NCBI GenBank assembly: GCA_965231095.1
Contig: OZ246416.1
Coordinates: 249,228-313,227 of the forward strand
Origin: an uncultured Gammaproteobacteria bacterium
Lineage (GTDB): Bacteria; Patescibacteriota; Patescibacteriia; XYB2-FULL-38-15
Length of the DNA: 64,000 nt
Direction of reading: 5' to 3'
The notes beneath the pieces were generated by a model. That model did not search any database. It saw only the letters and a program-made list of their open reading frames with translations, and was not told the origin of the DNA. Below are positions 1,563-59,120 of this stretch, piece by piece. The stretch's first letter is position 1. Each line of letters starts with the position of its first letter. Both the position numbers and the translations under genes were made by a program.

Positions 1563-1637
1563 TCGGGGGTAGCTCAGCGGTAGAGCAGCGCGCTGTTAAC
1601 GCGTTGGTCGTGGGTTCGAATCCCACCTCCCGAGCCA
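1563..1637 (+). tRNA. tRNA-Asn (anticodon GTT), CCA encoded
   Basis: Hand-folded cloverleaf: acceptor TCGGGGG/CTCCCGA, D-arm GCTC-AGCGGTA-GAGC, anticodon stem GCGCG/CGCGT with loop CTGTTAA, T-arm GTGGG-TTCGAAT-CCCAC, discriminator G, then CCA. Confidence 0.85.
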
Positions 1638-3236
1638 ATGTGCACGAACAGAGGTCAAAGCCTCTGTTTTTGCTTTGTTCATCGGCCTCTTCGCCGGTTC
1701 TAACCTCAAATATTCTTTTTCCAGGGCGGGATAGCCATTTTTGATAGGCACAAACCAATCGTTCGGTTCAATAATAAGTTTTTCGCCTCTAATTATTGGA
1801 GTTTTTCCAAGTGCTGCCAAAATTTCTTTCTTCAGTTCTAACCCTGCTTTACCCATTTTGTCGGCTCTCAAGAAGGCTACACGTGCGTAGGTCGCGAAAT
1901 TGAAAGTTTTTTCAGTAAGTTCCAACCACTTGTCGGCTCGTGTTTCGGTTTGCCGTAAATTTTCTTTCATTTGGTTAATCTTTCCCTGAAGAGTATTTTT
2001 TTCTCTAACAAAAGTTTCGTCGTCAATAAGTTGGCGGTATCTCATTTTTGTTAGTTCATCCAACTCTTTTTGGGTTTCGGTCAAATTTTTATGTTGCATC
2101 TCATAAACCTTTGTCCGATCTTCAATCTCGTTGTCATTCTTCTTATTTAGCCCTTCCAGCGCCCATTGCAGGAATTCTGGTAGGATAGTATATTTTTCAA
2201 TTTCTTTTTCAATCATAAGCTCCAAGTCGGCCAATGGGATATTTTTTTTCTGGTTACATTTTACTTTTGTCGTTTTCCTTGTGCAGTGATAATAGGTGTG
2301 TTCATGTATCTCGCCAGATTTGAGCAGTTTCTTTTTAGTCTCGGCGGTATAAAGACAGCCACACACACCGCATCGAATTAAACCAGTAAAAGCGAAGTCG
2401 TGAGTCTTCGGCCTCGGTTTGCCTTTTCTCCCAAGGAGCATTTGCACCCGGTCATATTCTTCAAGTGTAATCATCCGTTCGTGTTTGCCTTCGTATTGCG
2501 CGCCGTTGTAGTCTATTACGCCCGTATAGAAGAGATTTGTGAAAATCCGATAAATACCACTTCTCGATAATTCATCGCCGCCCTTCCGCTTAAATTTTCT
2601 TGTCCGAAAGCCCCATTCCTTATTTGCAATATCTAAAATTTTCGGGGGAGTATAATTGCCGGTGAGCATTAAATCCCACATTTTACGAATAATGCTAAAA
2701 CGTTCTGGATCCGTGATTATTATTTTATTTTCTTTGTCGTTAAGATAGCCGAGCGGGGCCACTCCCGTTTGCCAGCCTTTCTCTAATTTGGAAAGCATGC
2801 CGCGTTTCGTATTCTTGCTCAAATCTATGATGTATTGGTTGGCAACGCCGCTTTCAACGCTAAAAAGTAAGACGTTGTCCTCTGGGAGATATTGGCGATC
2901 CATTGTTTGAATTGATTTTAAAACGCCTCTTTGCAAGAGCCAACTTATTTTTCCGCTATCAATCGGATTACGGGAGAGGCGGTTTATTTGCCAGCATAAA
3001 ATTCCGCCTGCTTCGCCATTTTCAATTCGTTGCAGCATTTCGGAGAATAGGGGACGGTTGTCTGGTTTTTTGGCTGATTTAGCCTCGGTATAAACTTTTT
3101 TGATATTTAAATTAAGATCGGTAGCAAGTTTTTTAAGCCGATTGACCTGGTCATCAATAGACTGCACTTGCCGGTCTTCACTTTCCGACGATTTTCTGGC
3201 GTAGATAAAGTATTTAATTAGTTGGTTTGCGGCCAT
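1596..3236 (-). CDS. Large serine recombinase (integrase). The ORF track start at 3329 is TTG; ATG at 3236 (MAANQLIKYFIYARKSS…) is the more plausible start.
   Basis: N-terminal resolvase catalytic domain (YARKSSESEDRQVQSIDDQ; PLFSEMLQRIENGEAGGILCWQINRLSRN), a recombinase domain (GVAPLGYLND), a zinc ribbon (CGVCGCLY…YYHC) and a C-terminal coiled-coil. The 3' end overlaps the tRNA-Asn 3' end, as expected for an element-encoded integrase running through attL. Confidence 0.85.
   Translation of the reverse strand: MAANQLIKYFIYARKSSESEDRQVQSIDDQVNRLKKLATDLNLNIKKVYTEAKSAKKPDNRPLFSEMLQRIENGEAGGILCWQINRLSRNPIDSGKISWLLQRGVLKSIQTMDRQYLPEDNVLLFSVESGVANQYIIDLSKNTKRGMLSKLEKGWQTGVAPLGYLNDKENKIIITDPERFSIIRKMWDLMLTGNYTPPKILDIANKEWGFRTRKFKRKGGDELSRSGIYRIFTNLFYTGVIDYNGAQYEGKHERMITLEEYDRVQMLLGRKGKPRPKTHDFAFTGLIRCGVCGCLYTAETKKKLLKSGEIHEHTYYHCTRKTTKVKCNQKKNIPLADLELMIEKEIEKYTILPEFLQWALEGLNKKNDNEIEDRTKVYEMQHKNLTETQKELDELTKMRYRQLIDDETFVREKNTLQGKINQMKENLRQTETRADKWLELTEKTFNFATYARVAFLRADKMGKAGLELKKEILAALGKTPIIRGEKLIIEPNDWFVPIKNGYPALEKEYLRLEPAKRPMNKAKTEALTSVRAHWLGRWDSNPRPTR
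1615..1637 (+). repeat. attL core: 23-bp direct repeat equal to the tRNA-Asn 3' end (ttcgaatcccacctcccgagcca)
   Basis: Exact 23/23 match to 9908-9930. Confidence 0.65.
1649..1672 (+). terminator. Rho-independent terminator after tRNA-Asn (embedded in the recombinase 3' coding region on the opposite strand)
   Basis: cagagg-tcaaag-cctctg hairpin followed by tttttg. Confidence 0.5.
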
Positions 3237-3455
3237 ATTTTTGTTACAATTTAGCTGGGAGAAAGGAAAGGCAGAAGTTTCCCCCTCCGAAACTTTTGAC
3301 CTCAACCCTTTTCTCTTCTTTAAACTCAAAGGGACGGTCTGGTTGACCCAGTCGCTTCTCCGTGAGGATAGGCTTCTGGCAGACCGCCCCTTAAAGGGCA
3401 GAAACCTATAAAAAATCTCACGGATTTGTCTTATGCTGGGTCAACGTTTTTATTA

Positions 3456-3706
3456 TATCACGATTTTCCACCATTTTCCACCATTTTGATCATAACTGAC
3501 AACGATTTCCCACGATTTCCATACTTTTCCAATATTTTAATCGTAATTTTCCCTGATTTTCCACGATTTTTATTCTTCGACCACCAATCATTTTCAATCA
3601 TTTTCAATCATTTTTATTCTCCTCTTTCCCGGCATTTCCGCCATTTTCCGCCATTTTTCCAATATTTTACATTATTTTTCCGCAATTTTCCGCAATTTTT
3701 ATTCAT
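3456..3706 (+). repeat. Iteron-like array of tandem 10-11 bp direct repeats (ATTTTCCAC/ATTTTCCGC family) between the recombinase start and the SpoVG-like gene
   Basis: ttttccacca x2, cgatttcc x2, caatcatttt x3, ccattttccg x2-3, ccgcaatttt x2. There are about 14 TTTCC cores, all on one strand at helical-turn spacing. Confidence 0.55.
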
Positions 3707-3832
3707 TCATTTTGTAAATAGTTACTTCTACCTTATAGGAAATCTATTAAATAACTTTATAGAGTTAAATATAGAAAGTTATTATATATTGTTAACTATA
3801 TAGATACTTAAATAATTAACTATGAGAGATAG

Positions 3833-4174
3833 CTATTTAGAAAATATTTTTTCAATTTCTTCATCCTGGACTCCCATTCTTTTTTGATAATGGCTGTTAG
3901 TCTGCTTATAGTATTCATTCCAAATCTTTGCTTGCAGGGCTTCCCAGAGGCCTTTTTCGGGCATAAAGAATATCGGACGGTATTTTCCACCCGCCGAGGG
4001 ATAAGAAGGGGGAGTGAGCCATAATTTATCACCTTTTAAGTTTGGATATTGCGACTCCATCACTCTGAAACCCTTGACTATAAGATCTCCAAAATCTACG
4101 GAAATTATGGCTTTTAGTTTTTGCCCTTCAAGCACTTTTACTTTAATAGAGATTACGTCTAAATCTACGTTCAT
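3833..4174 (-). CDS. SpoVG family protein (113 aa)
   Basis: Collinear with SpoVG: LKAIISVDFGDLIVKGFRVMES resembles [24 protein letters not shown], and the C-terminal …IWNEYYK resembles …VLNEYHR. ATG at 4174. Confidence 0.55.
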   Translation of the reverse strand: MNVDLDVISIKVKVLEGQKLKAIISVDFGDLIVKGFRVMESQYPNLKGDKLWLTPPSYPSAGGKYRPIFFMPEKGLWEALQAKIWNEYYKQTNSHYQKRMGVQDEEIEKIFSK

Positions 4175-4198: not shown

Positions 4199-4396
4199 TT
4201 ATGTTTTTAAGTCGCCGGTCTCTTTCCGGCGTTCTTGTAGTTTTTTGTATTCCGTCTCGGTCACTGGTTTATAAATCAACTCAACTAATCGGATGAGTTT
4301 TGCACCCTGCTCATACGCTTCCTCTCGGCTGATTTCTTTGCCGAAGTAGTTTTTATAAAGCGTTTGATAAGTTTTAATTTGCTCATCCGATAGCAT
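4199..4396 (-). CDS. Hypothetical small protein (65 aa)
   Basis: ATG ORF inside the island with coding-like composition; no motif recognised. Confidence 0.4.
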   Translation of the reverse strand: MLSDEQIKTYQTLYKNYFGKEISREEAYEQGAKLIRLVELIYKPVTETEYKKLQERRKETGDLKT

Positions 4397-4399
4397 AGT

Positions 4400-4696
4400 T
4401 TACTCCGAGTAAATTCGGTTTTTTAACATTTTGATATTATCAAAGAACGTCCTCGCCTTAACTTCTAGGCGGTCTGCCCAGTAATTATCAACGACCTTTT
4501 CAATGCCGATTTCTCGGCGAAAGATAAACTGGACTTTTTTGGGATTGGATTTGTCTAATGAGACAAGCTCAAAACCCGCCGTTGTCAATGAGGCGGCGGC
4601 TCCCAAATCAAAGGTATATAGGTGTTGTGAGTAGTCATCCGCGGGAGCGAATTTATTATCACTCCCCGGTTGACCACCTCTGAGTTTTTTGGTCAT
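4400..4696 (-). CDS. DUF5659-like protein (98 aa)
   Basis: TFDLGAAASLTTAGFELVSL…KKVQFIFRRE…VDNYW…KARTFFDNIKMLKNRIY resembles the DUF5659 pattern seen in CPR mobile elements. This is from memory and was not searched. Confidence 0.4.
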   Translation of the reverse strand: MTKKLRGGQPGSDNKFAPADDYSQHLYTFDLGAAASLTTAGFELVSLDKSNPKKVQFIFRREIGIEKVVDNYWADRLEVKARTFFDNIKMLKNRIYSE

Positions 4697-5482: not shown

Positions 5483-5595
5483 AGTAATTTATATTATAAT
5501 ATTGCGAAATAACGCATTTCCGATGTAAGATAATATTATCAAACGTTAGGTGTTAAATCAATAACTAGGGGGTCCCTGGTTTGGAGAAAACATTT

Positions 5596-6921
5596 ATGGC
5601 ATTTTATGGAAAAATTATAAAACAAGTCGGGGGAAAATTCTGGCGGCATATTCATAAGGAGACACTTATTCCATATAAGGGCAATATGCCTAGCCGGGAG
5701 AAATTTTTGAAAGATCTTTCAGAGAAGATAGAAAAAATGCAGTATATCCCATCGCCACCTCGTGCTTATATCGTTTCGCATAAACAGAATCTGGTTGTTA
5801 GGTTTATACCTACAATGCAGAGGAGCGATTACTGCATTTATTTTTTTTGTGTTAAATCTCTTGAAAAAGAGATTGCAAAAAATCGTGTGCGGGGCACATA
5901 TGGCGGTTGGAAATTGGGAGGGAAAATTCGAAGAGCAGAGAATGGCGACGATGCACCGTCTACACCAGACGCCAGCTATAACAGATTCGAATGGATGCGC
6001 GCCTGGACAGATTATCAAAAGAGAGCATATGGATTTTATCTAAATGATAAGTTTAAGTATTTTATCGTCTTTGATATTGCAAATTTTTATGACTCGGTAA
6101 GACTTGGAAGGCTTGAAATATTGTTGCGCGAAGCAGCGCAAAAAAATAAAACTTCAGTCGTTAATCTTTTAATATATTTTTTATCGAATTGGGGTAAAAG
6201 GGATTTAAATTACGAAAGGCAAAGCACCGGGTTACCGCAAGACGAGGTCGGAGACTGTTCGAGGATCTTGGCGAATTTTTATTTGCAAGATTATGATAAA
6301 AAAATCTATAAGATTGTTTCGAGAAAAAAGGGTGGTTATCTGAGATATGCGGATGACCAAATTATAGCCGCGCCCAACGAAAAGACGGCAAAAAAAATTA
6401 TGTTTCTCGCTTCGCAAGAACTCGCCAAAATCGGTCTAAATCTAAACGCAAGTAAAGCTAAATTTTTTGAGAATCGAGATGAATTTAGTTATTTTTGGTC
6501 ATTCGATATTTTCAAATTACTCGGAAATAAAAATAACAAAAAAACGATTGAAAGCGCGTATAGTCTTTTTAAAGCAAGGAAGGCTAAGGATATACAATTT
6601 AAATCCGATGCAGTTCTCAAGAGACTTCTAAGTTGCAATCTTCGTTGCATCTCCCGAAATGTTCGCGAAGAGATCCTCGAGATGGTAAATAGAAAAGAAT
6701 TTTTGATTAATGTTAAAGACTATTATCTCAAAAGAATATACGAATTTATGCCCAGAAATAAAAAAAGTATTTTTTTGAAGTATCTAAATAATTTATCAGA
6801 CGAAATCCTTTTTAATGAGTTTCATCTAAGAGTAATGAAATTTTTCCGTGAAAAAAGAATCGACGGGATTTATTCGGATAAGCTACACTCAAATCTATTG
6901 AAACTGAATGATCTCGTGTAA
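5596..6921 (+). CDS. Reverse transcriptase of the retron/Abi/UG (defence-associated) type with an alpha-helical C-terminal extension. The ORF track start at 5581 is TTG; ATG at 5596 is preferred.
   Basis: RT motifs: motif 1/2 (IPSPPRAYIVSHKQNLVVRFIPTMQRSDYCIYF), motif A (FKYFIVFDIANFYDSV), motif B (GLPQDEVGDCSRILANFYL) and motif C (LRYADDQIIAAP), followed by about 200 aa of helical C-terminus. There is no maturase X or endonuclease domain. Confidence 0.85.
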   Translation: MAFYGKIIKQVGGKFWRHIHKETLIPYKGNMPSREKFLKDLSEKIEKMQYIPSPPRAYIVSHKQNLVVRFIPTMQRSDYCIYFFCVKSLEKEIAKNRVRGTYGGWKLGGKIRRAENGDDAPSTPDASYNRFEWMRAWTDYQKRAYGFYLNDKFKYFIVFDIANFYDSVRLGRLEILLREAAQKNKTSVVNLLIYFLSNWGKRDLNYERQSTGLPQDEVGDCSRILANFYLQDYDKKIYKIVSRKKGGYLRYADDQIIAAPNEKTAKKIMFLASQELAKIGLNLNASKAKFFENRDEFSYFWSFDIFKLLGNKNNKKTIESAYSLFKARKAKDIQFKSDAVLKRLLSCNLRCISRNVREEILEMVNRKEFLINVKDYYLKRIYEFMPRNKKSIFLKYLNNLSDEILFNEFHLRVMKFFREKRIDGIYSDKLHSNLLKLNDLV

Positions 6922-6981: not shown

Positions 6982-7153
6982 ATCTGCCTAAACCTCGCTC
7001 CCTCCGCGAGGCATGGCAACTAAATCCTACGCGAATAAAGATGGTCTCCTGACCAGCACTTATTCGCGTAGGTCCACGTCCGAAAGGGCGTGGGGCGATT
7101 CCGAAAGGGGTCGTCGCTGTGTTGGGAGACCTTTTTTGTTTCCCTAGGCAGAT
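6982..7153 (+). ncRNA. Structured non-coding RNA immediately 3' of the RT (retron msr/msd-like or DRT-like ncRNA candidate)
   Basis: A 9-bp terminal inverted repeat (atctgccta at 6982-6990 and taggcagat at 7145-7153) closes the element. Inside are hairpin cctcgc/gcgagg, a perfect 13-bp stem cctacgcgaataa/ttattcgcgtagg (7026-7038/7060-7072) with a 21-nt loop, and two GAAA-tetraloop hairpins (7074-7093, 7095-7117). It ends with gggagacc + TTTTTT. The GNRA loops read GAAA only on the + strand. Confidence 0.5.
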
Positions 7154-8706: not shown

Positions 8707-9687
8707 ATGCCTTCTGCGAAACTAGCTAAAGTAAATATAAAAATACCTGCATCATACGAACCATCTTTTGGCATAAGTAGGTGGAGTAAAAATGATTACG
8801 CGAAACCATTAATATTTAAAATCGATAATGCTGAAGCACGGATATTTTTAGAATATCCACCGACGGGGTTCTCGGTATTTCCTAAATTAAAAATATTCCC
8901 ATTTCCGAATCCATTTATAGTTTTACTGATTCGTAATCCAAGTGCTGAATTTATACAAGGATTGAAGGCGAAAAGTGGAGAAAATACTGTTAAAACGGCA
9001 GAACATATCTACAAAATATACGTAGAAGTAGTAAGTAAATTAGAAATTTTGCTTCGAACTGTAGGGGGAGTTAAAAATTTATATGAACTCAGAACTCCGC
9101 CAATAGAAGCGTTATTCAAAAAAAATATTTTAGATTATCCAGTTACCTTTCAAATAGATTCAGAAGATAAAAAACCCTTTAGTCCGAAATTTTCGACAAG
9201 GTCAAGGAGAAGGAACCCTCTTTTTAAAGCCGATCAGCTTGTAACGCCAGATAAGTGGGGGAAGATGCAAAGAGCCATTGATAATCGATATTACGCAAGC
9301 CAAGAAATTATTGAAATATTAAGAATACGAGCGAAGCTATTAGGAGAAAATAAAAAATTAGCAACTCTCGAATCTGCAATTCTTTTCGAAAGTCTGCTGA
9401 GAGACTATTCGCGTAAGACTCTTGAAGAGAGGGGAGTCAGCAATACAAAGGTGAAGGAAGTTAGTGATGAATTAAATTTCAATAATATCCTCAATCTGCT
9501 ACTTCCCCTCAGTTTAAAAAAGGCAGAGGTCCTTAAACTTCGCGAAAGTATAAATACGATTGATGCATTGAGAAAAATTAGAAACAAAGTCATTCATGGA
9601 GAATTGACAGAAGATAAGATTGATAAAAAAATAATTGAAAAGGGGATTGAGGGGGGACTGAAATTGATTAGATTTTTATTTAAATGA
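8707..9687 (+). CDS. Hypothetical protein with a C-terminal HEPN-like Rx4H motif (326 aa); possible Abi-type RNase
   Basis: The C-terminal helical region reads …IDALRKIRNKVIHGELTED… (R-N-x3-H-G, as in HEPN/Abi_2-type domains). The rest is unrecognised. Confidence 0.4.
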   Translation: MPSAKLAKVNIKIPASYEPSFGISRWSKNDYAKPLIFKIDNAEARIFLEYPPTGFSVFPKLKIFPFPNPFIVLLIRNPSAEFIQGLKAKSGENTVKTAEHIYKIYVEVVSKLEILLRTVGGVKNLYELRTPPIEALFKKNILDYPVTFQIDSEDKKPFSPKFSTRSRRRNPLFKADQLVTPDKWGKMQRAIDNRYYASQEIIEILRIRAKLLGENKKLATLESAILFESLLRDYSRKTLEERGVSNTKVKEVSDELNFNNILNLLLPLSLKKAEVLKLRESINTIDALRKIRNKVIHGELTEDKIDKKIIEKGIEGGLKLIRFLFK

Positions 9688-9907: not shown

Positions 9908-9930
9908 TTCGAATCCCACCTCCCGAGCCA
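9908..9930 (+). repeat. attR core: second copy of the 23-bp tRNA-Asn 3'-end repeat
   Basis: Exact copy of 1615-1637; followed by an AT-rich hairpin that is probably the original tRNA terminator. Confidence 0.65.
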
Positions 9931-9967
9931 AAATAAAATATCCAACGAAAGTTGGGTATTTTATTTT
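9931..9967 (+). terminator. AT-rich 17-bp hairpin with a GAAA loop right after attR (probably the ancestral tRNA-Asn terminator)
   Basis: aaaataaaatatccaac-gaaa-gttgggtattttatttt. Confidence 0.45.
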
Positions 9968-18985: not shown

Positions 18986-19145
18986 CAGTAAATAATAATT
19001 AAGATAAAGTTGTTTTTCATAGTTCTTTTAGATAATTTGAGTGGCCTACCGAAGTTTACCCACGGGGGTGATTTTGGCGGGCCACTCAAGGTGTTAGTGG
19101 GAAATGGGGGGGCGGTGATAAACAGTGGCACCGTAAGGTGCAGTG

Positions 19146-20129
19146 ATGGATAAAGAGAAAGGGAAAGAAAGGTCAAGGATTCTTCTTGAGCTCGGGGGCC
19201 AAGAGATGAGGATCACAAAAAGGCGATCCTTAATCCAGGGCGTACGTCCGAGCGCGGAGGAACTGTGGGCAAATGTCGGGAATGGCGGTGCCGTGCCGAT
19301 CATCTATCGAGATCTTCCTTACAAGCGGGTTCAAGCTAACCTTCAGGTTCCCGTGTCTTGCGGATGTGAGTTGGCGGTTTGGGGCAGAGAAAGAGGCTGG
19401 AGGGGCGGCTGTTCGTTTTGCGATATTGGAAGGTTCGCTCGCCACCGCTACTTGAATGTTTCGGAGGTACTGAGCTTGGTCGGCCTGATCCTCGGAAAAT
19501 CATCCCTGGCGGATCGTTTCTGGGGGAGACAAGAGAAGTGTCTCGTGATCTCCTTTTCAGCCGCCGGGGAACCGCTTCTGAGATGGGGGATGGTAAAGGA
19601 GGCCATAATAGCTCTCTCTCGGATTTTCGGGGAAAACGGCGTTCGAGTGTTCTTCTCGATCTGCACCGTTGGGGTTGCGGACGGGATTCGCGAGCTCCTG
19701 CACGATATCAGGTTCTGCGACGAATATCGCCTTCAACTGCGTTTCTCTCTGCACTTCACGTCCGATGAAGACCGAGGGAAGTTCATTCCTGCCAATGATC
19801 CCATTCGACGAATCGTCGAACTCGGGACGACCTACGCCGAAACCGTCGGGGTAAGGTTGGTCCTCCACTACGCACTGATCCAGGGAGTCAATGACTCGCG
19901 CGAACATGCACGAGCTCTGATCAAACTGCTCTACGACCGGAGGGAACACATCCTCGTACGCGTCTCGCGGATCAATCCTGATTGCGGCGCGGGAAAAGTC
20001 GAGCTCGCTCCTTCATCCAAAAGCCGGCGGAGGAAGTTCGTTAGACTTTTGAAAGAAGGAGGACTGGAATGTTCGCCAGTCTGGGAGGGCTACGCAAGAT
20101 GGGCGTGTAACGCCGCCCATTTCCGCTAA
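19146..20129 (+). CDS. RlmN/Cfr-family radical SAM protein (rRNA adenine-C methyltransferase-like) in a GC-rich block, with an atypical Cys motif
   Basis: Collinear with RlmN: CSFCDIGRFARHRYLNVSEVLS resembles CSTGQQGFNRNLRVSEI, and LIQGVNDSREHARALIKLL…VRVSRINPDCGAG…SSKSRRRKFVRLLKEGGLECS…ARWACNAAHF matches the RlmN C-terminus including the second conserved Cys. The N-terminal cluster is SCGCELAVWGRERGWRGGCSFC rather than CX3CX2C. Confidence 0.55.
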   Translation: MDKEKGKERSRILLELGGQEMRITKRRSLIQGVRPSAEELWANVGNGGAVPIIYRDLPYKRVQANLQVPVSCGCELAVWGRERGWRGGCSFCDIGRFARHRYLNVSEVLSLVGLILGKSSLADRFWGRQEKCLVISFSAAGEPLLRWGMVKEAIIALSRIFGENGVRVFFSICTVGVADGIRELLHDIRFCDEYRLQLRFSLHFTSDEDRGKFIPANDPIRRIVELGTTYAETVGVRLVLHYALIQGVNDSREHARALIKLLYDRREHILVRVSRINPDCGAGKVELAPSSKSRRRKFVRLLKEGGLECSPVWEGYARWACNAAHFR

Positions 20130-29266: not shown

Positions 29267-30115
29267 ATGGACCTCTCAATTATTATCGTAAATTGGAAAG
29301 TTAAAGATCTGCTGGAAAAATGCCTACGGTCTATTTTTGAACAAACTAAAAATATAAGTTTTGAGGTTTTTGTGGTTGATAATAATTCGGGCGACGGAAG
29401 CGCGGAGATGGTGCGGGAAAAATTTCCCCAAGTTGATCTGACGGCCAGCGCGGAAAACTTGGGTTTTGCAAAAGGAAATAATCTGGCGATAAAAAAATTT
29501 CGCGGCAGATATGTTTTACTTTTAAATCCCGACACGGAAATTTTAGATAATGCCTTGGGTAAAATGGTTAAATTTATGGACGCCCAAGAGGAGTGCGGCA
29601 TTGCCGGTTGCAAACTTTTAAACGCCGACTTGTCTCTTCAACCATCAGTTCGCGCTTTTCCGGATTTTGCCTCGCAGATTTTTATTTTGTTAAAAATTCA
29701 CCATTTGTTTCCGCACTCAAAAACCATGTACAAATATCTAGTTCAAGATTTTGATTATGGAAAAACACAAGAAACGGATCAGGTCATGGGTGCGTTTATG
29801 ATGATCCGACGAGAGGTGATAAATAGAATTGGAGTGCTTGATGAAAATTTTTGGATTTGGTTTGAAGAAGTTGATTTTTGCAAACGGGCAAAAGAGGCTG
29901 GTTTCAAAATTTTCTACACGCCGGAAGCAAAAATCATCCATCACTTTGGCCAAAGTTTTAAACAAGCCATGGGCGTAAAAAAACAAAAAGATTTTAACCG
30001 GAGTTTGTCGTATTATTTCAAAAAACATGGAACAAAAGGGGAGTGGATCGCAATACAGATTTTACGGCCATTAAGTTTGGCCTTGGCTTGGCTCGCGCAA
30101 AATTTTAAAAAATAA
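29267..30115 (+). CDS. Family 2 glycosyltransferase
   Basis: LSIIIVNW…VVDNNSGDGS…LLNPD motifs. Confidence 0.8.
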   Translation: MDLSIIIVNWKVKDLLEKCLRSIFEQTKNISFEVFVVDNNSGDGSAEMVREKFPQVDLTASAENLGFAKGNNLAIKKFRGRYVLLLNPDTEILDNALGKMVKFMDAQEECGIAGCKLLNADLSLQPSVRAFPDFASQIFILLKIHHLFPHSKTMYKYLVQDFDYGKTQETDQVMGAFMMIRREVINRIGVLDENFWIWFEEVDFCKRAKEAGFKIFYTPEAKIIHHFGQSFKQAMGVKKQKDFNRSLSYYFKKHGTKGEWIAIQILRPLSLALAWLAQNFKK

Positions 30116-30181
30116 AAAAAACCGACTTAATCAGCTTGCGCTTTTCAGTCGGCGTAGATTCGTTCCTCCGTCGATCGCGAT

Positions 30182-30661
30182 CTAGACCGCGATGGGCTGG
30201 TTCACGTAGAAGGCGGCGAGCGTGGCGATGATCTTCATCGCCTCAGCCTCGCCGATCTGGCGGAAGTCGCCGGCCGAAACCCGGCAGTCGGCCGCCAGAC
30301 TGCGGATGGTCTCGGTTCCGTCTCCCCCGATGCGGGTGGAGCCCTCCACTCCCCAGATATTGGCATCAGGGAAGTAGCTGACCAGGATCAGGCGTTCGCT
30401 TTCCTCTCCTCCGGTCAGAGCGACTTCGATCGAGGTGGGCTCCCACCTCTCTTGCTCTTCCTTGGGGGCGCTGGGGCTCACGCGCCCGAAGACGAGATCC
30501 CAGCCGAGGAGGAAGCCGCTGCGCGCCGACGTGTCGAAACCGGCGATGATGTCGTCGTAGTGGACGGCCTCATGCCCGTGGACGCGAAGCCTGGCAAAGA
30601 TCTCCTCGACTTTCTGGCACAACACGATCGTCTTCTTCAATCTTTCGAGCCGGGAATTCAT
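30182..30661 (-). CDS. Hypothetical protein, paralog A of a tandem 3-member family (GC-rich)
   Basis: Shares MxSRLxxLxxxIxLCxxVxxIF…GFxxxxxSGxLLGW…SIEVxL…AxxIIxTLxxFY with the neighbouring ORFs. It has its own TTGACA-17-TAGATT promoter and SD gaaggaggg. Confidence 0.5.
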   Translation of the reverse strand: MNSRLERLKKTIVLCQKVEEIFARLRVHGHEAVHYDDIIAGFDTSARSGFLLGWDLVFGRVSPSAPKEEQERWEPTSIEVALTGGEESERLILVSYFPDANIWGVEGSTRIGGDGTETIRSLAADCRVSAGDFRQIGEAEAMKIIATLAAFYVNQPIAV

Positions 30662-30805
30662 CCCTTACACCCTCCTTCTCGCCCAAACCCAATTGTTTAG
30701 GCTACACTATAATCTAACAACAAAATTATAAATTGTCAAGACTTCCTTATTCTTTTAAAATAAAAAAGCCGACCGAAGAGCAAGTGTTCCTGGTCGGCAG
30801 ACGGA

Positions 30806-31285
30806 CTATCCTCCCGCTGTGATCGCGGTCTTGACCGCGGAAAGGTTGGTATAAAAGTCGACGAGTGTTCGGATAATCGCAAAGGCTTGACCTCTACTGA
30901 TCACCCGAAAATCTCTGTTGGGCGCGAGATCCCAGGTGTCGGCCAGTTTTTGCAACGAAGCGTCTTTCGTCGCGAAACAATATTTGGCCTTCCAGATCAA
31001 GCCACCTTCACTGGGTAAAAGAATCTGGTCGCAGCGTACCTGGATGATTGGGTTGTGTCTGTCTCCCCAACTGATGAACACCTCGATGGAAATGTGTGTC
31101 TCTCTGATGTCGAGACACCAACCAAGAAGGTAGTCGCATCTTGAAGGGGCGGTGAATCCGGCGCAAAAAGGGTTGTACGGAGCAGGGATTGCTTCGCTTC
31201 CTGTGACGCTGCTTGATTCGAAGATCCCTTCAACTTCATTGCACAGTTTGATCACCCGCGTCAGTACCTGAAGTCTTGAATGCAC
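30806..31285 (-). CDS. Hypothetical protein, paralog B
   Basis: Homologous to A and C; SD aaagggagg; terminator hairpin gccgacc…ggtcggc+T6 downstream. Confidence 0.5.
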   Translation of the reverse strand: MHSRLQVLTRVIKLCNEVEGIFESSSVTGSEAIPAPYNPFCAGFTAPSRCDYLLGWCLDIRETHISIEVFISWGDRHNPIIQVRCDQILLPSEGGLIWKAKYCFATKDASLQKLADTWDLAPNRDFRVISRGQAFAIIRTLVDFYTNLSAVKTAITAGG

Positions 31286-40947: not shown

Positions 40948-41077
40948 GCGTCCTCCGTTCTCGGTGATCCATTCACACTAGGCATCGTCGTCCTGACAAT
41001 GCTACACCGAGGACAAAGTTCCTAACCCGTCTGCCGACCCAAGGTTCATCCAAGAATCTTTCTGGGTCGGCTTTTTT
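40948..41077 (+). repeat. Direct repeat copy 1 (about 130 bp, includes a terminator hairpin)
   Basis: About 98% identical to 41800-41929 apart from one divergent 14-bp patch; ends gccgaccca…tgggtcggc+T7. Confidence 0.75.
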
Positions 41078-41184
41078 TATTTCAAATAAAATTTGACAAA
41101 AAATATAGTAAATGTAAAATGCGGAACATATAGTTTGAAAGCGGAACATGGGGTTCTGCTACGTGAAAGGGAAGGGAAAAGAAG

Positions 41185-41775
41185 ATGACGAAGATTCTGT
41201 TTGCGTTCTTGTTCGGGTTGCTGATCGTCGGCGCGGCAAATGCGTCGACCACCACCATCTATGGAACCGCCTGGGATGACGACATCACCGTGATGCGGTA
41301 CCACTACAGCGGCTTCCTGGTTGAGGGGGCATGCGTCAACAATACGTGGCACTTGGGCGGAGACGCCACGTCGAGCGATCTCATCTACGTGTACGGAGGG
41401 ACCGGTGATGACCGCATCGACGTGATCACCACGGATGGTGATTTTTTCGTCTGTGGGGGTGAGGCGAAGCGCGTCTACAGCCTCGACTACAGCTACGCGT
41501 GCCCAGGAGTTTTGCTCTCCGGAGATGATGACGACGATGTTCTCGTCGGCGGAGAATGTGCCGAGGTGCTCTCGGGTGGCGACGACAACGACACCTTATT
41601 CGGAGGGGCAGGTTGCGACTACCTCTATGGGGGTTGTGGCTCGGACTGCCTGTCGGACAGCAACGTCTGCACAGTCGACTGCGGCGAGTGCGGAACCGAC
41701 AACGACTCAGAGGCAACGCCCCTGTCTCCCTCGAGCTGCGAGAACTCCGCGATGTTCTGCTTCATCTCGGGGTGA
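41185..41775 (+). CDS. Secreted RTX-like calcium-binding repeat protein (196 aa)
   Basis: Signal peptide MTKILFAFLFGLLIVGAANAS; GGxGxD-type repeats (YGGTGDDRIDV, LSGGDDNDTLFGGAGCDYLYGGCGSD); Asp/Cys-rich. Promoter TTGACA-16-TAAAAT upstream. Confidence 0.55.
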   Translation: MTKILFAFLFGLLIVGAANASTTTIYGTAWDDDITVMRYHYSGFLVEGACVNNTWHLGGDATSSDLIYVYGGTGDDRIDVITTDGDFFVCGGEAKRVYSLDYSYACPGVLLSGDDDDDVLVGGECAEVLSGGDDNDTLFGGAGCDYLYGGCGSDCLSDSNVCTVDCGECGTDNDSEATPLSPSSCENSAMFCFISG

Positions 41776-41799
41776 CGAGGTCTGGGCTAGCAGCCTTTC

Positions 41800-41929
41800 C
41801 GTCCTCCACTCTCGGTGATCTATCTATATATAGCATCGTCGTCCTGACAATGCCACACCGAGGACAAAGTTCCTAACCCGTCTGCCGACCCAAGGTTCAT
41901 CCAAGAATCTTTCTGGGTCGGCTTTTTTT
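41800..41929 (+). repeat. Direct repeat copy 2
   Basis: See copy 1; together they bracket the RTX-like gene. Confidence 0.75.
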
Positions 41930-42027
41930 ATCTCTTGACGGAAAATTAAATATAATTTAACCTAAGCAAAAGGTTAGAAACCTTGACGCGAGGCAGTTCG
42001 CCCGCGTGGAAAAGGGAGGGAAGTAAC

Positions 42028-42279
42028 GTGGAAACTACGCTGTTCGCGATCTGGATCGTCGGGGTCGTCTTGGTTCTGGCGGCTGGGGTATGTTGGGAGT
42101 GGTGGCTCGAAGTTGAGGAGAGGAATCACGGGGAGCCGTGGTTCGGCACCGTCGTCTTCGTGGCTCTCATCTGGCCCGCACTTCTGTGCTTCTTTGTCTT
42201 GCCCATGGGGATCATGCGGGTTTGGGGCAAGGTAGAGGAGGTGATGGCGAGAAGGAGATTCGCGAGAGGAGAGTGGTAA
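42028..42279 (+). CDS. Small 2-TM membrane protein (83 aa, GTG start)
   Basis: SD aagggaggg 8 nt upstream of the GTG; W-rich TM helices. Confidence 0.4.
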   Translation: METTLFAIWIVGVVLVLAAGVCWEWWLEVEERNHGEPWFGTVVFVALIWPALLCFFVLPMGIMRVWGKVEEVMARRRFARGEW

Positions 42280-42476
42280 TGATAGACATCCTTGGTCCGT
42301 TGATCGGCGTTGCGTTCGCCGCGGCGTTTGCTCTGGATCTTTGGTGCGAGCCGCTCCTGTTCGACACCTTCGGCACCTCTGGTGCGACCGGGTTCTGGGA
42401 GAACGGTGCCCAGACCCGTTGCACATTCGTCGAGACCGCTCCTGTTCGGATCGCTGGAGAGTGCTCGCTCGCTTGA
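42279..42476 (+). CDS. Small protein (65 aa) coupled to the previous ORF (TAATG overlap)
   Basis: MIDILGPLIGVAFAAAFALDLW… hydrophobic N-terminus. Confidence 0.35.
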   Translation: MIDILGPLIGVAFAAAFALDLWCEPLLFDTFGTSGATGFWENGAQTRCTFVETAPVRIAGECSLA

Positions 42477-42581
42477 TCGGCCCGGACAACGTAACCGTCG
42501 CGTTGGACACCCGGGCAAAATGAGGAATGGCGGCTTACCTGCGGCACGACGCCCCATCCGAGGGAAGGAAGGAACCCCGGC

Positions 42582-42857
42582 ATGATAAGTGCTGGAATCG
42601 TGCCTGCCCTCGTGCAGATCTGCGTCGGTGGTAACTGGGACGTCTGCTCTTACACTTCGCCGTTGTTTACGTCCGTCCATCACGACGGTCGTACGAACGA
42701 CCTCGACGGACGAGACGGTGTCTTCGAATGCTCGGAGGACGCTCCGCGCGTTCGCGACGAGGTGACGAGCGCCCGGCCAAGCGGAAGCCCGCTCCTGGCC
42801 GTTCGTACCAGTACACCGTGCAGTTCATGCGCGAGACAGGCACGCGCGCCGCCCTGA
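42582..42857 (+). CDS. Hypothetical Cys-containing protein (91 aa)
   Basis: SD ggaagga; followed by terminator cccggct…agccggg+T6 (about 42864-42912). Confidence 0.35.
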   Translation: MISAGIVPALVQICVGGNWDVCSYTSPLFTSVHHDGRTNDLDGRDGVFECSEDAPRVRDEVTSARPSGSPLLAVRTSTPCSSCARQARAPP

Positions 42858-43018
42858 CGTAACCCCGGCTTGTGAAGAGACCGAAATATCTTCCGAGCCG
42901 GGTCTTTTTTATGTCGCAAAAATTCAAAAATCCTAACCAATATGCTGGATAGGATTTTATGTTGGAGTCCCGATTTTAGTCGGGCAAAATTGCCCACTCT
43001 AAAGAGTGGATTCCGTTT

Positions 43019-46185: not shown

Positions 46186-47208
46186 TTATTTTAAAATTAA
46201 ATTTAAATCTTCTCCGCATTTGGCGCATTTACCATTTTTATCATGACGCACAATTTCATATCCATGACGTTCAACCATTTTTACTCCGCACTTTGGGCAA
46301 AATGTTGTTTCGTATTCTGGCAGCGCCACATTGTCTAAGTAAACGTATTTTAGTCCGGATCTCTTTCCGACTTCCCGAGCTTCAATGAGTGACGACGGGG
46401 GAGTGGGCGGCAAATCTCGCAGTCTGTAGGTTGGAAAAAATTTGGAAATATGCCAGGGAGTTTCCCTTCCCAATTCTTTGGCGATAAAATTGGCAATGCC
46501 TTCAAAATGTTCTGCCGTATCATTTCCTCCGGGTACAACAAGAGTTGTAACTTCCACCCAAACTCCGCCTTGTTTTATGATTTTTAAAGTTTGCAAAACC
46601 GGCTTTAATTTCGCTCCGCAGACCGTGTAATAAAATTTTTCAGTAAAACCTTTAAGATCAATATTTACCGCGTCAAGATAGGGGATTGCTTCGGTTAAAA
46701 CTTCGCGGCTCGTGTAGCCATTTGACACCCAAACATTTTTTAAATTATTTTTTCGCGCGAGTTTCATTGTCTCCAGGGCAAACTCAATAAAAATTGTCGG
46801 CTCGGAATAAGTGTAAGAAATTGACGGCGCTCCGGAAAGCAAGGCCTCGCTCACAACTTCTTCCGGCGTCATATCTTGGCCCGGGACATTTTCTTCCCTT
46901 AAGTCGCTCTCTTTGGGCATTTGGGCAATGTCCGCGTTTTGGCAATAAAGGCATCTAAAATTACATCCAACCGTGGCGATGGATAAACTTTTCGTCCCGG
47001 GCAAAAAATGGAAAAGAGGTTTTTTCTCAATCGGGTCAATATTTTTGGCAATTACTTTTCCATAAACTAATGAATAAAGCGTGCCGTCAATATTTCGCCG
47101 CACAGAACAAATTCCGCGCCGCCCGGGAGAAATTTGGCAATAATGATTACAGGCCTGGCATTGAACCTTTTGTTCCTCTAATTTTTTATAAAATTGTGCC
47201 TCTTTCAT
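46186..47208 (-). CDS. Radical SAM enzyme, AmmeMemoRadiSam (AmrS)/PFL-activase-like. The track start at 47226 is TTG; ATG at 47208.
   Basis: CNFRCLYCQN (CX3CX2C) with an N-terminal CxxC…C zinc knuckle and a C-terminal CPKCG…CAKCG. Confidence 0.75.
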   Translation of the reverse strand: MKEAQFYKKLEEQKVQCQACNHYCQISPGRRGICSVRRNIDGTLYSLVYGKVIAKNIDPIEKKPLFHFLPGTKSLSIATVGCNFRCLYCQNADIAQMPKESDLREENVPGQDMTPEEVVSEALLSGAPSISYTYSEPTIFIEFALETMKLARKNNLKNVWVSNGYTSREVLTEAIPYLDAVNIDLKGFTEKFYYTVCGAKLKPVLQTLKIIKQGGVWVEVTTLVVPGGNDTAEHFEGIANFIAKELGRETPWHISKFFPTYRLRDLPPTPPSSLIEAREVGKRSGLKYVYLDNVALPEYETTFCPKCGVKMVERHGYEIVRHDKNGKCAKCGEDLNLILK

Positions 47209-47286
47209 ACTATACGATTGTACCAAAAATTTGTAAAAAAATAAACCGACGCTTCCTCCCTTGCGTCGGTAATGTTCTTTCGCAGA

Positions 47287-47475
47287 TCACTTCTTCTCTT
47301 CCCATCCGCGCGCGATCAGTTCGGCATCATGCATGGTGAGTTTCCGCGAGTTGAAGCGCAACCCCCGAAAAACGTCGGGCGGCAACTTCTCGCGCAGGTA
47401 GCGCAAAGCGGCTTCCGTCTCACCGTGCCGATCGCCTTGCGTCACACCCTTCTGTCCACCTTGTTGCTTTGTCAT
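47287..47475 (-). CDS. Hypothetical small protein (62 aa), last gene of the GC-rich minus-strand operon
   Basis: Follows the Zn-ribbon gene; terminator hairpin ccgacgc…gcgtcgg+T-run at 47236-47262 (minus sense). Confidence 0.35.
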   Translation of the reverse strand: MTKQQGGQKGVTQGDRHGETEAALRYLREKLPPDVFRGLRFNSRKLTMHDAELIARGWEEKK

Positions 47476-47489
47476 TTTTTCCTCCGATT

Positions 47490-47957
47490 CTACGCCGCCT
47501 CACCCCGTGGAACTACGCCGCAGTCCGGACACTGGATGATCCGCTCGAACGACTTTGTGTACGTCCCGAAGGCGTGCTTGTTTCCGCAGCGGGGACAGGC
47601 GAGATCGTACTTGATCCAGTGAACGTGCTTCTCCCAGTCGCAAATCAAACATCGCAGAACAAAATACGGCGGCTTCATCTCCCTGGTCTGCATGCCGTTG
47701 TGTCCGCACCTTTGGCAAAAAAAGCCCGTGTCGCAGTGAACGCAGTGACCCTTGCCATCTGCCGGAATGGCGCAAACATGAGGATGGTGTTGCGGCGAAA
47801 TTTGCAGCCGCGCCCTTGTCAGGCGACTTTCGGCAGCCGCGCCTATCCCGACACGAACCACGCAAGCGTGACACTGCGAGCAAAGCCCTCCTTGCTTCCG
47901 CGGATGCCCGCAATTCGGGCAAGGATCTCCGTCGTATTTACCCCAAGAGTCTTCCAT
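47490..47957 (-). CDS. Multi-zinc-ribbon protein (155 aa from ATG 47957; the track's GTG start is at 48023)
   Basis: Seven CxxC pairs (CPNCG, CSQCH, CVHCD, CQRCG, CLICD, CPRCG, CPDCG); SD ggagag. Confidence 0.45.
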   Translation of the reverse strand: MEDSWGKYDGDPCPNCGHPRKQGGLCSQCHACVVRVGIGAAAESRLTRARLQISPQHHPHVCAIPADGKGHCVHCDTGFFCQRCGHNGMQTREMKPPYFVLRCLICDWEKHVHWIKYDLACPRCGNKHAFGTYTKSFERIIQCPDCGVVPRGEAA

Positions 47958-47967
47958 TTTTTCTCTC

Positions 47968-48147
47968 CTATCCGGAAACGTTCGGTCCGTAGATGGTCCG
48001 ATACGCCTCTTCAAAACGCGCACCTTCGCGTACTTTTACGGCGCGGAGTGCCGCAGTCCAAAACACAACAGACGCGCGCTCCTCAAACGACAAATTTCTC
48101 CACCACCTGAGAACTTCGCGTTGTTTTTGAGTTTCCTTCCTAGCCAT
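47968..48147 (-). CDS. Small protein (59 aa; MARKETQKQREVLRWWRNLSFEERASVVFW…), first gene of the GC-rich operon
   Basis: Not in the ORF track (below 60 aa). Strong SD aaaaggagga before the ATG; promoter TTGACT-17-TAGATT upstream (about 48185-48215, minus sense). Confidence 0.3.
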   Translation of the reverse strand: MARKETQKQREVLRWWRNLSFEERASVVFWTAALRAVKVREGARFEEAYRTIYGPNVSG

Positions 48148-57902: not shown

Positions 57903-58070
57903 ATGACAAAAGGCAAAAAATCGCCAAGGATAGCACGGCGATGGGCAAAGGCCTTGAAGACATACGGCGCGAGAAGCTGGAGGGAGCTCACCCCAGAGGA
58001 ACGGTTCGCGGCCTACGAGAGAGGGCTTCACTACTGGCAAAATCAGGAGGGCACACTTCCTCTGAGCTGA
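57903..58070 (+). CDS. Small basic protein (55 aa; MTKGKKSPRIARRWAKALKTYGARSW…) in a GC-rich block
   Basis: Not in the track. SD aaggaggg 8 nt upstream; promoter TTGCGA-16-TAAGAT; terminator ccggcg…cgccgg+T-run downstream. Confidence 0.25.
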   Translation: MTKGKKSPRIARRWAKALKTYGARSWRELTPEERFAAYERGLHYWQNQEGTLPLS

Positions 58071-58181
58071 CGGAGACAAAAACCGGCGAATCCAAAAATG
58101 GAAACGCCGGAATTTTTTATATAAAAAAGAGCACCGATTTGTAGTCGATGCTCGGATTCGGGAAAGCGGCGCGCGGGCCGC

Positions 58182-58529
58182 CTACTTCGCCAGGTGCAAA
58201 TCGATCCGGCAGAAGCCCATCTCCTCGCGCTCCTCGGGCGTATTGGGCGTCGTCGCCACCTCGATCTTCTCGCCCTCGAGCTGCATGGCCGCGATGATCT
58301 CGCAGATCTTGACCAAAAGCGGCTCATCGCCACTCTCAGAATTGTCATCGAATTTCCGATGGGTCCACCCACCCCCCTGTCCCCCACCCACGATGAGGAT
58401 CTGGCTGCGGCCGAAGAGACGGACGGCGTTCAGAGCGTTCGTCACTACTTCCGGCTCGATCGTGCCGCGAATGCCGAACGCCGCCGGTTTCTGGCGCAAG
58501 GCCAACTGAAGTACGAGTTTCTGACCCAT
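58182..58529 (-). CDS. Hypothetical protein (115 aa), GC-rich
   Basis: SD aaggagg before the ATG; Gly-rich ILIVGGGQGGGW segment; terminator hairpin downstream. Confidence 0.4.
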   Translation of the reverse strand: MGQKLVLQLALRQKPAAFGIRGTIEPEVVTNALNAVRLFGRSQILIVGGGQGGGWTHRKFDDNSESGDEPLLVKICEIIAAMQLEGEKIEVATTPNTPEEREEMGFCRIDLHLAK

Positions 58530-58655
58530 TCCCCTTCCTCCTTCTTTTCCTCAAAGTTGAGGATTTTATAGCTTAAAATATTTACACCCTTTTGTCAAGA
58601 GATAACAAAAGCCAGGTCAAATGACCTGGCCAATCTTTTAATTACCCACTACTCA

Positions 58656-59120
58656 TTACTTTATTTCAAGAATCGTGTAGTCAACCATTCCCTTTGGCAC
58701 CTGGATTTGAACCTTATCTCCTCTTTTCTTTCCCAAAAACGCCCGGCCGAGTGGAGATTCATTGGAAATTTTCCCAGCGAGCGGTTCTGCTTCGGCCACG
58801 CCGACGATCTCATATTCCGCCTCTGCCCCATCACTTTTTACTTTTACTTTTGACCCAACGCGGACAATATCAATTCTTCCATCGCCGTTTATAATTTCCG
58901 CGCGGGCAATCATATCTTGCAATTCAATAATTCTGCCTTCTGTGAATGCCTGTTCGTCTTTGGCCGCGGCGTACTCGGCATTTTCGGATAAGTCGCCGAG
59001 TTCTTTGGCGCGTTCAATGCGCTCAATAATTTCTTTTCTTTTTACATTTACCAAATCTTCCAGCTCTTGCTTAAATTTTTCCAAACCTTCGCGCGACACG
59101 TACATTTTTTGATCCGACAT
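58656..59120 (-). CDS. greA: Transcription elongation factor GreA
   Basis: N-terminal coiled-coil (…LEKFKQELEDL…) and an FKBP-like C-terminus. Confidence 0.9.
   Translation of the reverse strand: MSDQKMYVSREGLEKFKQELEDLVNVKRKEIIERIERAKELGDLSENAEYAAAKDEQAFTEGRIIELQDMIARAEIINGDGRIDIVRVGSKVKVKSDGAEAEYEIVGVAEAEPLAGKISNESPLGRAFLGKKRGDKVQIQVPKGMVDYTILEIK

Follow-up and report, generated by a model that had tools for sequence, protein, structure and literature searches.

A helically phased array of 10-bp repeats in an integrated Patescibacteria element: a possible origin-like cis site of its replication module

Mobile elements of the CPR are almost uncharacterised, and the locus described here raises the question of what a dense array of short, same-strand repeats beside a recombinase gene is for. 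A first reading, made from the letters of the DNA alone and hereafter called the sequence-only reading, saw iterons or a cooperative binding-site array, and proposed a replication origin, a partition site, or recombination-directionality or regulatory sites. We follow up these proposals in the window, that is, the whole 64,000-nucleotide stretch of DNA that was analysed, and in two sets of relatives: 61 loci with related recombinases from genome contigs, mostly Patescibacteria MAGs, and 39 loci with related SpoVG-like proteins from metagenome contigs.

The array, about 250 bp long, occupies window positions 3456–3712; it begins where it was first placed and runs on past the proposed end at 3706 to about 3712. 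It consists of 10-bp units, each opening with a T-tract on the + strand. All 22 T-tracts, found between 3464 and 3710, are carried by that strand, with the A-tracts on the minus (sense) strand. Their spacing is mainly 10 bp, with single steps of 9, 11, 12, 14, 22, and 24 bp, and this combination of local 10-bp spacing and single longer steps results in a global period of 10.65 bp, near the helical repeat. The corresponding periodogram peak has a power of 4.66 versus 0.65 ± 0.22 in 500 shuffles (maximum 1.54), approximately 18 standard deviations above them. The lag-10 autocorrelation excess of 0.32 is the strongest in the 64 kb, where the mean is 0.004 (SD 0.033) and no other place exceeds 0.10. 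Tandem Repeats Finder reports CACCATTTTC in 2.9 copies (3459–3487), ACGATTTCCC in 1.9 (3502–3520), ATTTTCCACG in 2.5 (3546–3570), CAATCATTTT in 3.0 (3585–3614), and a degenerate period-10/21 block (3635–3700), matching the repeats listed in the sequence-only reading and confirming its description of a non-random, one-strand, helically phased array of short duplications.

In minus-strand orientation, the units run (AAAATTGCGG)2, (AAAATGGCGG)2, (AAAATGATTG)3, AAAATCGTGG, AAAATCAGGG, approximately two copies of AAATCGTGGG, and (AAAATGGTGG)2.9, amounting to at least eight distinct sequences that have in common only an A-tract or a GGAAAAT core. An ATTTTCC(A/G)C core had been ascribed to every unit; some indeed carry it, but the three copies of CAATCATTTT and several single units have the T-tract only. 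The exact core ATTTTCCRC matches 14 times in the window versus 4.7 ± 2.1 expected, with five of the 14 matches in the array and the rest scattered, a clustering and enrichment that, as far as 64 kb allows, sets the motif apart from a genome-wide low-complexity feature. The + strand of the array is poor in G (16 per 260 bases). Its sequence is base-for-base identical in samples L110 and L111, two independent assemblies, which rules out an assembly artefact, and copy number does not vary among three samples. Folding of the array as RNA is weak (z = −2.3), and it matches no Rfam family. The 125-aa open reading frame across it (3426–3803, +) has no Pfam family, although a public gene caller did call it in sample L110; as first suspected, it is probably spurious, since it is antisense to the operon and crosses conserved noncoding DNA.

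Helix-phased A-tracts are joined here by strong predicted curvature, so that by both measures the array has the makings of intrinsically curved DNA. In a dinucleotide wedge model (Bolshoy–Trifonov parameters), its predicted ratio of end-to-end to contour length is 0.50 versus 0.91 ± 0.06, the lowest among 1,275 windows of the 64 kb, with two other places near its score. Among the related loci described below, predicted curvature in L002 and in L080 is highest at their arrays, the in-gene repeat sites of L014, L016, L108, and L109 rank second or third, and the sites of L068, L001, and L006 are unremarkable.

That the array belongs to a mobile element, as first proposed, is borne out by its surroundings. 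It lies inside an element of about 8.3 kb that is integrated at a tRNA-Asn gene (1563–1637) and bounded by 24-bp direct repeats: the left copy (1615–1638, +) is the 3′ end of the tRNA-Asn, whose final 24 bases recur exactly in the right copy (9908–9931, +). The large serine recombinase gene (1596–3329, −), with Resolvase, Recombinase, and Zn_ribbon_recom domains, overlaps the tRNA-Asn gene at its 3′ end; its reading frame stops inside the tRNA (1596–1638), and hence its last codons and stop codon are supplied by the attachment-site sequence. The start is ambiguous, being either a TTG at 3329 directly after the leader RNA, the position of the relatives' ATG, or the first ATG at 3236, about 90 nt on; the former would extend the protein by 31 aa at its N terminus, and the latter would lengthen the untranslated spacer. 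Attachment sites of serine recombinases lie at the element boundary, span about 40–50 bp, and have imperfect dyad symmetry. The array was rejected as such a site, because it is internal and made of direct repeats, the boundaries being the 24-bp repeats; likewise, recombination-directionality sites are not expected with a large serine recombinase.

Along the minus strand, the order is a 226-aa gene, a DUF5659 gene (4400–4696), a 65-aa gene (4199–4396), a 113-aa SpoVG-like gene (3833–4174; Pfam SpoVG, E = 1.4e-7), an AT-rich segment, the array, a promoter-like site, a leader RNA, and the recombinase gene. PHROGs and PADLOC return no match for the SpoVG-like and 226-aa proteins, nor does PHROGs for the 65-aa and DUF5659 proteins, and sequence searches of the PDB give no useful match for the SpoVG-like and DUF5659 proteins; a single-sequence AlphaFold model of the latter is unusable (pLDDT 45). 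Pfam searches of the reading frames, together with synteny, find no Rep, primase, or helicase gene between the att repeats, and no TerS-like or DUF5681 gene was found in the window.

The other half of the element, on the + strand, carries cargo in the form of a reverse transcriptase, a LOOT RNA, membrane proteins, and a HEPN-like protein. The reverse transcriptase (5581–6921, +) is of class UG13b (PADLOC, E = 5e-143) and is followed after 64 nt by the LOOT RNA (6985–7115, +; Rfam RF03000, 77 bits); the two may constitute an RT–ncRNA defence pair. A 326-aa cargo protein (8707–9687, +) has a weak RiboL-PSP HEPN match (E = 1e-4), under the curated cut-off. Literature searches on this element family, on SpoVG in mobile elements, and on LOOT RNA returned nothing of relevance. 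In the wider window, neither rRNA nor an additional tRNA was found; 1-kb blocks with 52–59% G+C stand out from a background of about 40% (19001–20000, 30001–31000, 41001–43000, 47001–48000, and 58001–59000), and the cumulative GC skew climbs to about 43 kb and then declines, with its maximum near 42–43 kb.

The array is flanked on both sides by conserved noncoding features. On the recombinase side, a consensus scan identifies a promoter-like site, TGGAAA-17-TATAAT with TG in front (3452–3480, −), whose −35 hexamer falls within the last array unit and whose −10 lies 7 nt ahead of the first base of the leader RNA, the transcription start being putative. A TATAAT-like hexamer stands at an equal distance from helix P1 in the relatives. 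The leader itself (3325–3445, −), defined by covariance model R1, is about 120 nt long and comprises three stacked helices and a pseudoknot of the apical loop (AAGGGGCGGUCUG) with the 3′ tail (CAGACCGUCCCUU). The model has 28 matches, every one of them directly 5′ of a recombinase gene: beside the window, these are in L001, L002, L003, L006, L011, L013, L014, L016, L019, L021, L023, L025, L038, L050, L054, L067, L068, L072, L074, L080, L082, L084, L086, L088, L090, L096, and L108. With the pseudoknot included, 95.4% of the alignment cells are paired and 35 of the 41 pairs show compensatory change, a level of pairing reached by none of 500 shuffles, while slid controls are 36–48% paired. In most loci the leader begins 7 nt past the TATAAT box and stops 4–10 nt short of the start codon. 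It matches no Rfam family and is a candidate new cis-regulatory RNA motif.

Abutting the array on the other side, directly after the stop codon of the SpoVG-like gene, is a conserved AT-rich noncoding segment of about 110–120 nt (3713–3832, −). It holds four TAGTTAAC-type repeats (GTTAAC palindromes) and, by promoter scan, a promoter-like TTAACA-16-TATATT. The segment can be aligned in about 30 loci (e.g., L025 5008–5100 and L080 2523–2620) whose SpoVG-like proteins are only 46–66% identical to that of the window; it is more conserved than the neighbouring protein. The constant partner of the SpoVG-like gene is this segment, not the array, and it could serve the SpoVG-type module as an operator, a promoter, or an origin core.

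Comparison by tblastn shows that the related elements have a common backbone composed of the DUF5659 gene, the 65-aa gene, a variable module, optional 178-aa and 197-aa genes, and the recombinase gene. The variable module is a 726-aa Toprim primase–helicase in L001, L006, L007, L014, L016, L023, and L034, the helicase part alone in L026–L033, a 476-aa P-loop protein in L002 (Walker A-like by eye, matching no Pfam family), and a SpoVG-like gene in the window, L013, L025, L036, and L062–L100; by synteny, the SpoVG-like gene fills the slot of the relatives' primase–helicase. It is in this same slot that further arrays occur, in L080 (2890–3250, with doubled AAAAGTTGAT, AAAACCTGAT, AGGTTAATAT, AAAA[AT]CGTGG, and AAAATGGTGG), L068 (4020–4330), L073 (1535–1640), and, weakly, L013 (1100–1330), and another lies right behind the P-loop gene of L002 (5021–5141). 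The units AAAATGGTGG and AAAATCGTGG are common to the window, L080, and L073, even though the L080 recombinase is only 37% identical, and the same units are retained across elements with 37–69% identical recombinases. Such recurrence in one slot fits a cis-acting and probably protein-binding site, in keeping with the binding-site array first envisaged.

The recurrence has its limits. The 900 bp preceding each of 57 related recombinase genes show no conserved G[CT]GGAAA[AT], and the sequence as such is therefore no family feature; a search for the motif in related elements, which the sequence-only reading had suggested, thus recovers like arrays in the slot but neither the exact motif nor a strict link to SpoVG. 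Elements with the 197-aa gene have one or two doublets at most, and large arrays are seen only where the 178-aa and 197-aa genes are absent from between module and recombinase. The helicase-only subfamily (L026–L033) is devoid of both array and leader, and most SpoVG-type relatives, including most that carry the 197-aa gene, have no large array. With so many relatives lacking it, the array is not essential to the family. A Terminase_2-like small reading frame directly precedes the array of L080 and a DUF5681 gene directly follows that of L073, with DUF5681 genes also present in L072, L005, L107, and L048. In L073, two SpoVG-family genes, one canonical and one of an element-specific type, are arranged in tandem (780–1139 and 1048–1383) with an overlap of about 90 nt. 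Outside the family, an unrelated high-GC phage contig (L106, IMGVR_UViG_3300028832_000212) contains an AT-rich island (3900–3975) that reads GGAAAATCGTGGAAAATCGTGGAAAAACGCAGTAATTTGCGGCAATTTGCGGCAATTTGC and has the two unit types of the window array, doubled. A family-A DNA polymerase gene lies on one side of the island and a small gene, whose product shows no similarity to DUF5659, on the other.

A second line of evidence is found within genes. Across 829 kb of loci, exact tandem duplications number 1015 at period 6, 220 at period 7, 74 at period 8, 46 at period 9, 46 at period 10, 6 at period 11, and 2 at period 12. Counts drop 3- to 5-fold per added base from period 6 to 8, and by extrapolation the 46 period-10 doublets represent roughly a 10-fold excess. 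Most of these doublets fall in the module slot, several of them within the first 800 nt of the primase gene, and there the A-tract is always on the sense strand; their unit consensus, AAAAT-NNN-GG, is the reverse complement of the ATTTTCC core. In the primase genes, exactly doubled or tripled 10-mers occupy homologous positions in L014 (2598–3137), L001, L006, L016, L023, L107, L108, and L109, as seen in codon alignments that include the fetched DNA of three more homologues (L107, L108, and L109), whose DNA repeats had been predicted from their peptides and were then confirmed. At one indel-free codon site, the doublet differs by homologue, reading (GTTAGCAAAT)2, (GTTAGTAAAT)2, (GTTAGGAAAG)2, (GGTAGGAAAA)2, or (AAAAGGTAGA)2.4; at a second, also free of indels, it reads (AAAATGGTGG)2, (AAAATGTTGG)2, or (AAAAATGTTG)2. 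In the Zn-finger/Toprim linker, L014 has two units in two copies each within 45 nt, and the same 45 nt of L109, whose protein P0003 is 90% identical to that of L014, contain the first unit once and the second 3.3 times.

Both copies of a doublet thus change in concert between homologues, at the cost of amino-acid changes. From this concerted change it follows that whole units turn over under selection that preserves reading frame, A-tract, strand, and 10-bp step. Unit turnover also explains the identical neighbouring units of the window array, the identity of which need not itself be functional. The in-gene doublets are a DNA-level signal laid over the reading frame. Primase–helicase homologues are often called at about 540 aa with unrelated C-terminal tails, followed by a separate 149–189-aa reading frame (L107 3501–5692 and L108 1851–3996; proteins P0001, P0010, P0012, P0020, and P0021), and L014 has a single 726-aa frame; the shorter calls may reflect a frameshift, a split gene, or an assembly artefact. 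The array as a remnant of a lost gene was rejected on tblastn, in which the window shows no similarity to the primase–helicase, the 178-aa protein, or the 197-aa protein; what it has in common with the primase gene is the repeat units only.

Taken together, these observations point to the array as a helically phased, bent, origin-like cis site of the replication module, a reading to which we assign a probability of roughly 40%. Some 22 A-tracts on one strand, one per helical turn, would impart an intrinsic bend and offer one face of the DNA across 250 bp. Placed in what would be the replication-module slot, between the 65-aa/DUF5659 backbone genes and the recombinase, the array could act as an origin-like or architectural platform for cooperative protein binding or DNA wrapping beside the AT-rich segment. 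Its binder might be an element protein, the primase–helicase of a helper element, or the host initiator, and the heterogeneity of the units implies no single sequence-specific one. The array would grow and renew itself through gain and loss of single 10-bp units, hence the identical neighbours, with selection preserving A-tract, strand, and helical phase. An origin-like role fits best, and is the best supported by context of the roles first proposed, because the slot is the replication slot, because doublets lie in or next to the relatives' candidate initiator genes, once in a linker-coding stretch, because the conserved AT-rich segment is adjacent, and because the phage contig L106 has the same unit types beside a DNA polymerase gene. 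Against it stand the absence of a recognisable initiator, the SpoVG-like, 65-aa, DUF5659, and 226-aa proteins having no assigned function, the heterogeneity of the units, the many relatives without an array, the chance origin open to AAAATGGTGG through peptide coding, as in phage TerS genes, and the failure to find any circular or episomal contig, terminal overlaps being present in none of 29 full-length contigs.

Known origins offer partial precedents. Iterons of plasmid and phage origins are direct repeats of one consensus, usually 17–22 bp long, with an adjacent initiator gene and an AT-rich unwinding region. Measured against these, the array is not canonically iteronic, given its heterogeneous 10-bp units with only an A-tract or GGAAAAT core in common and no recognisable initiator gene. 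The lambda origin lies inside gene O, in its linker-coding part, and consists of four iterons of about 19 bp and one consensus, bound by the O protein and bent by phased A-tracts. It resembles the present case in combining short direct repeats and bending in or next to an initiator gene with an adjacent AT-rich stretch, and the relatives' in-gene copies similarly lie in a linker-coding stretch tolerant of sequence change; it differs in that the units here are heterogeneous 10-mers, up to 22 in number and on a single strand, in an element without an initiator gene. SaPI/PICI origins have short iterons of 6–8 bp and one sequence that flank an AT-rich region just 3′ of pri-rep. They too belong to small integrative elements with an integrase at one end, a primase–helicase module occurs in the present family, the L002 array lies just downstream of a replication gene and beside an AT-rich segment, and some relatives have small-terminase-like genes. 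In contrast, the element described here has a large serine recombinase, a SpoVG-like module, A-tract-phased 10-mers, and no known helper phage.

Bent repeats can serve other ends, and the closest to hand is transcription. The array could serve the recombinase promoter as curved upstream DNA or as a platform for a regulator, its A-tracts wrapping or contacting RNA polymerase or a repressor and so setting the level of transcription. Curved DNA of 3–6 tracts lies upstream of promoters in Bacillus phage SP82 and of plc in Clostridium perfringens, and there, as here, A-tracts at about 10.5 bp are found immediately upstream of the −35 with predicted curvature. The TGGAAA-17-TATAAT site 7 nt before the leader takes its −35 hexamer from the last array unit, predicted curvature is strongest there, and additional −35/−10-like pairs occur within the array. 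Yet 22 tracts over 250 bp go far beyond known upstream activating tracts, the arrays of L080 and L068 stop about 70–120 bp upstream of the −10, the doublets of primase-type elements lie about 3 kb off and inside a gene, and most relatives keep promoter and leader without any array. With related arrays promoter-distant or in-gene, a promoter platform is unlikely. The units also bear some likeness to DnaA boxes, and a weak same-orientation cluster might recruit or titrate the host initiator. Five 9-mers within 231 bp (TTTTCCACC twice, TTTTCCACG, and TTTTCCGCA twice) are one mismatch from TTWTCCACA, a consensus that may not be the host's, and they lie on one strand in the sole such cluster of the 64 kb, much as E. 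coli oriC has same-orientation, low-affinity arrays of near-box 9-mers one helical turn apart. Still, none of the five matches perfectly, only five of about 22 units are box-like, and the period is 10 bp instead of 11. Box-likeness is not conserved in related arrays, most units of which (AAAAGTTGAT, AAAACCTGAT, and AAAACAACGA) are as little box-like as the three copies of CAATCATTTT; we find a DnaA-box cluster improbable.

The TerS-like and DUF5681 genes beside two related arrays suggest packaging, in which the site would be the pac site of a phage-satellite-like element, its phased repeats bound and wrapped by a ring of small terminase subunits. Pac sites, that of SPP1 among them, typically have bent, phased DNA, and TerS-like (L080) or DUF5681 (L073) genes flank arrays, with DUF5681 in other relatives as well. 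The window element nevertheless lacks either gene, and only a minority of relatives possess one. In primase-type elements, the in-gene doublets do not adjoin such genes, and viral contigs yielded no relative for either the recombinase or the SpoVG-like protein; we consider packaging very doubtful. The occurrence of (AAAATGGTGG)2 in phage TerS genes was discarded as pac evidence, since a sequence encoding the peptide KMVENGG can contain this unit by coincidence. Alternatively, the array might have no function at all, being a spacer left after gene loss and inflated by replication slippage of 10-bp units, as could be suspected from its slippage-like identical neighbours, from array content that varies widely among relatives, and from the confinement of large arrays to elements without the 178-aa and 197-aa genes. 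Mere filler would hardly keep the same units in elements with 37–69% identical recombinases, hold helix phase over 250 bp via compensating 11–24-bp steps, or persist as doublets in a coding gene despite the amino-acid cost, and slippage is not evident as copy-number variation among the three samples; we consider this explanation very unlikely. A partition site, as first proposed, is unlikely. In plasmid R1, the parC site flanks the par promoter with two sets of five 11-bp repeats, to which ParR binds, and is comparable in its contiguous, same-orientation, one-turn repeats overlapping a promoter. The array was nonetheless rejected as a ParR-type centromere, for Pfam finds no partition NTPase or adaptor families among the element's reading frames, and no ParA, ParM, ParR-like, or parB gene; moreover, the repeats have no single consensus and the element is chromosomally integrated.

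Returning to the origin-like reading, one extension of it would account for the distribution of arrays across the family. Doubled, A-tract-phased 10-mers could be an undescribed origin signal of Patescibacteria elements, encoded within the primase gene in autonomous members and subject to whole-unit turnover, and SpoVG-type members, having lost the primase–helicase, would keep an expanded array and hitch-hike non-autonomously, their replication depending on a protein supplied by a sibling element or phage. We regard this proposal as speculative and rather improbable as a whole.

The array would join the known repeat-bearing or bent-DNA cis sites of mobile elements, in an uncharacterised family of CPR elements, and its in-gene counterparts provide a clear example of a DNA signal overlaid on a coding frame. 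The family defined by this locus combines a large serine recombinase with a covarying leader RNA, and has a replication module that can be swapped as well as a distinctive repeat signal. Were the array an origin or a helper-recognition site, it would furnish a sequence handle for finding such elements, and would make it possible to ask whether excised elements replicate and whether members without a primase parasitise those that bear one.
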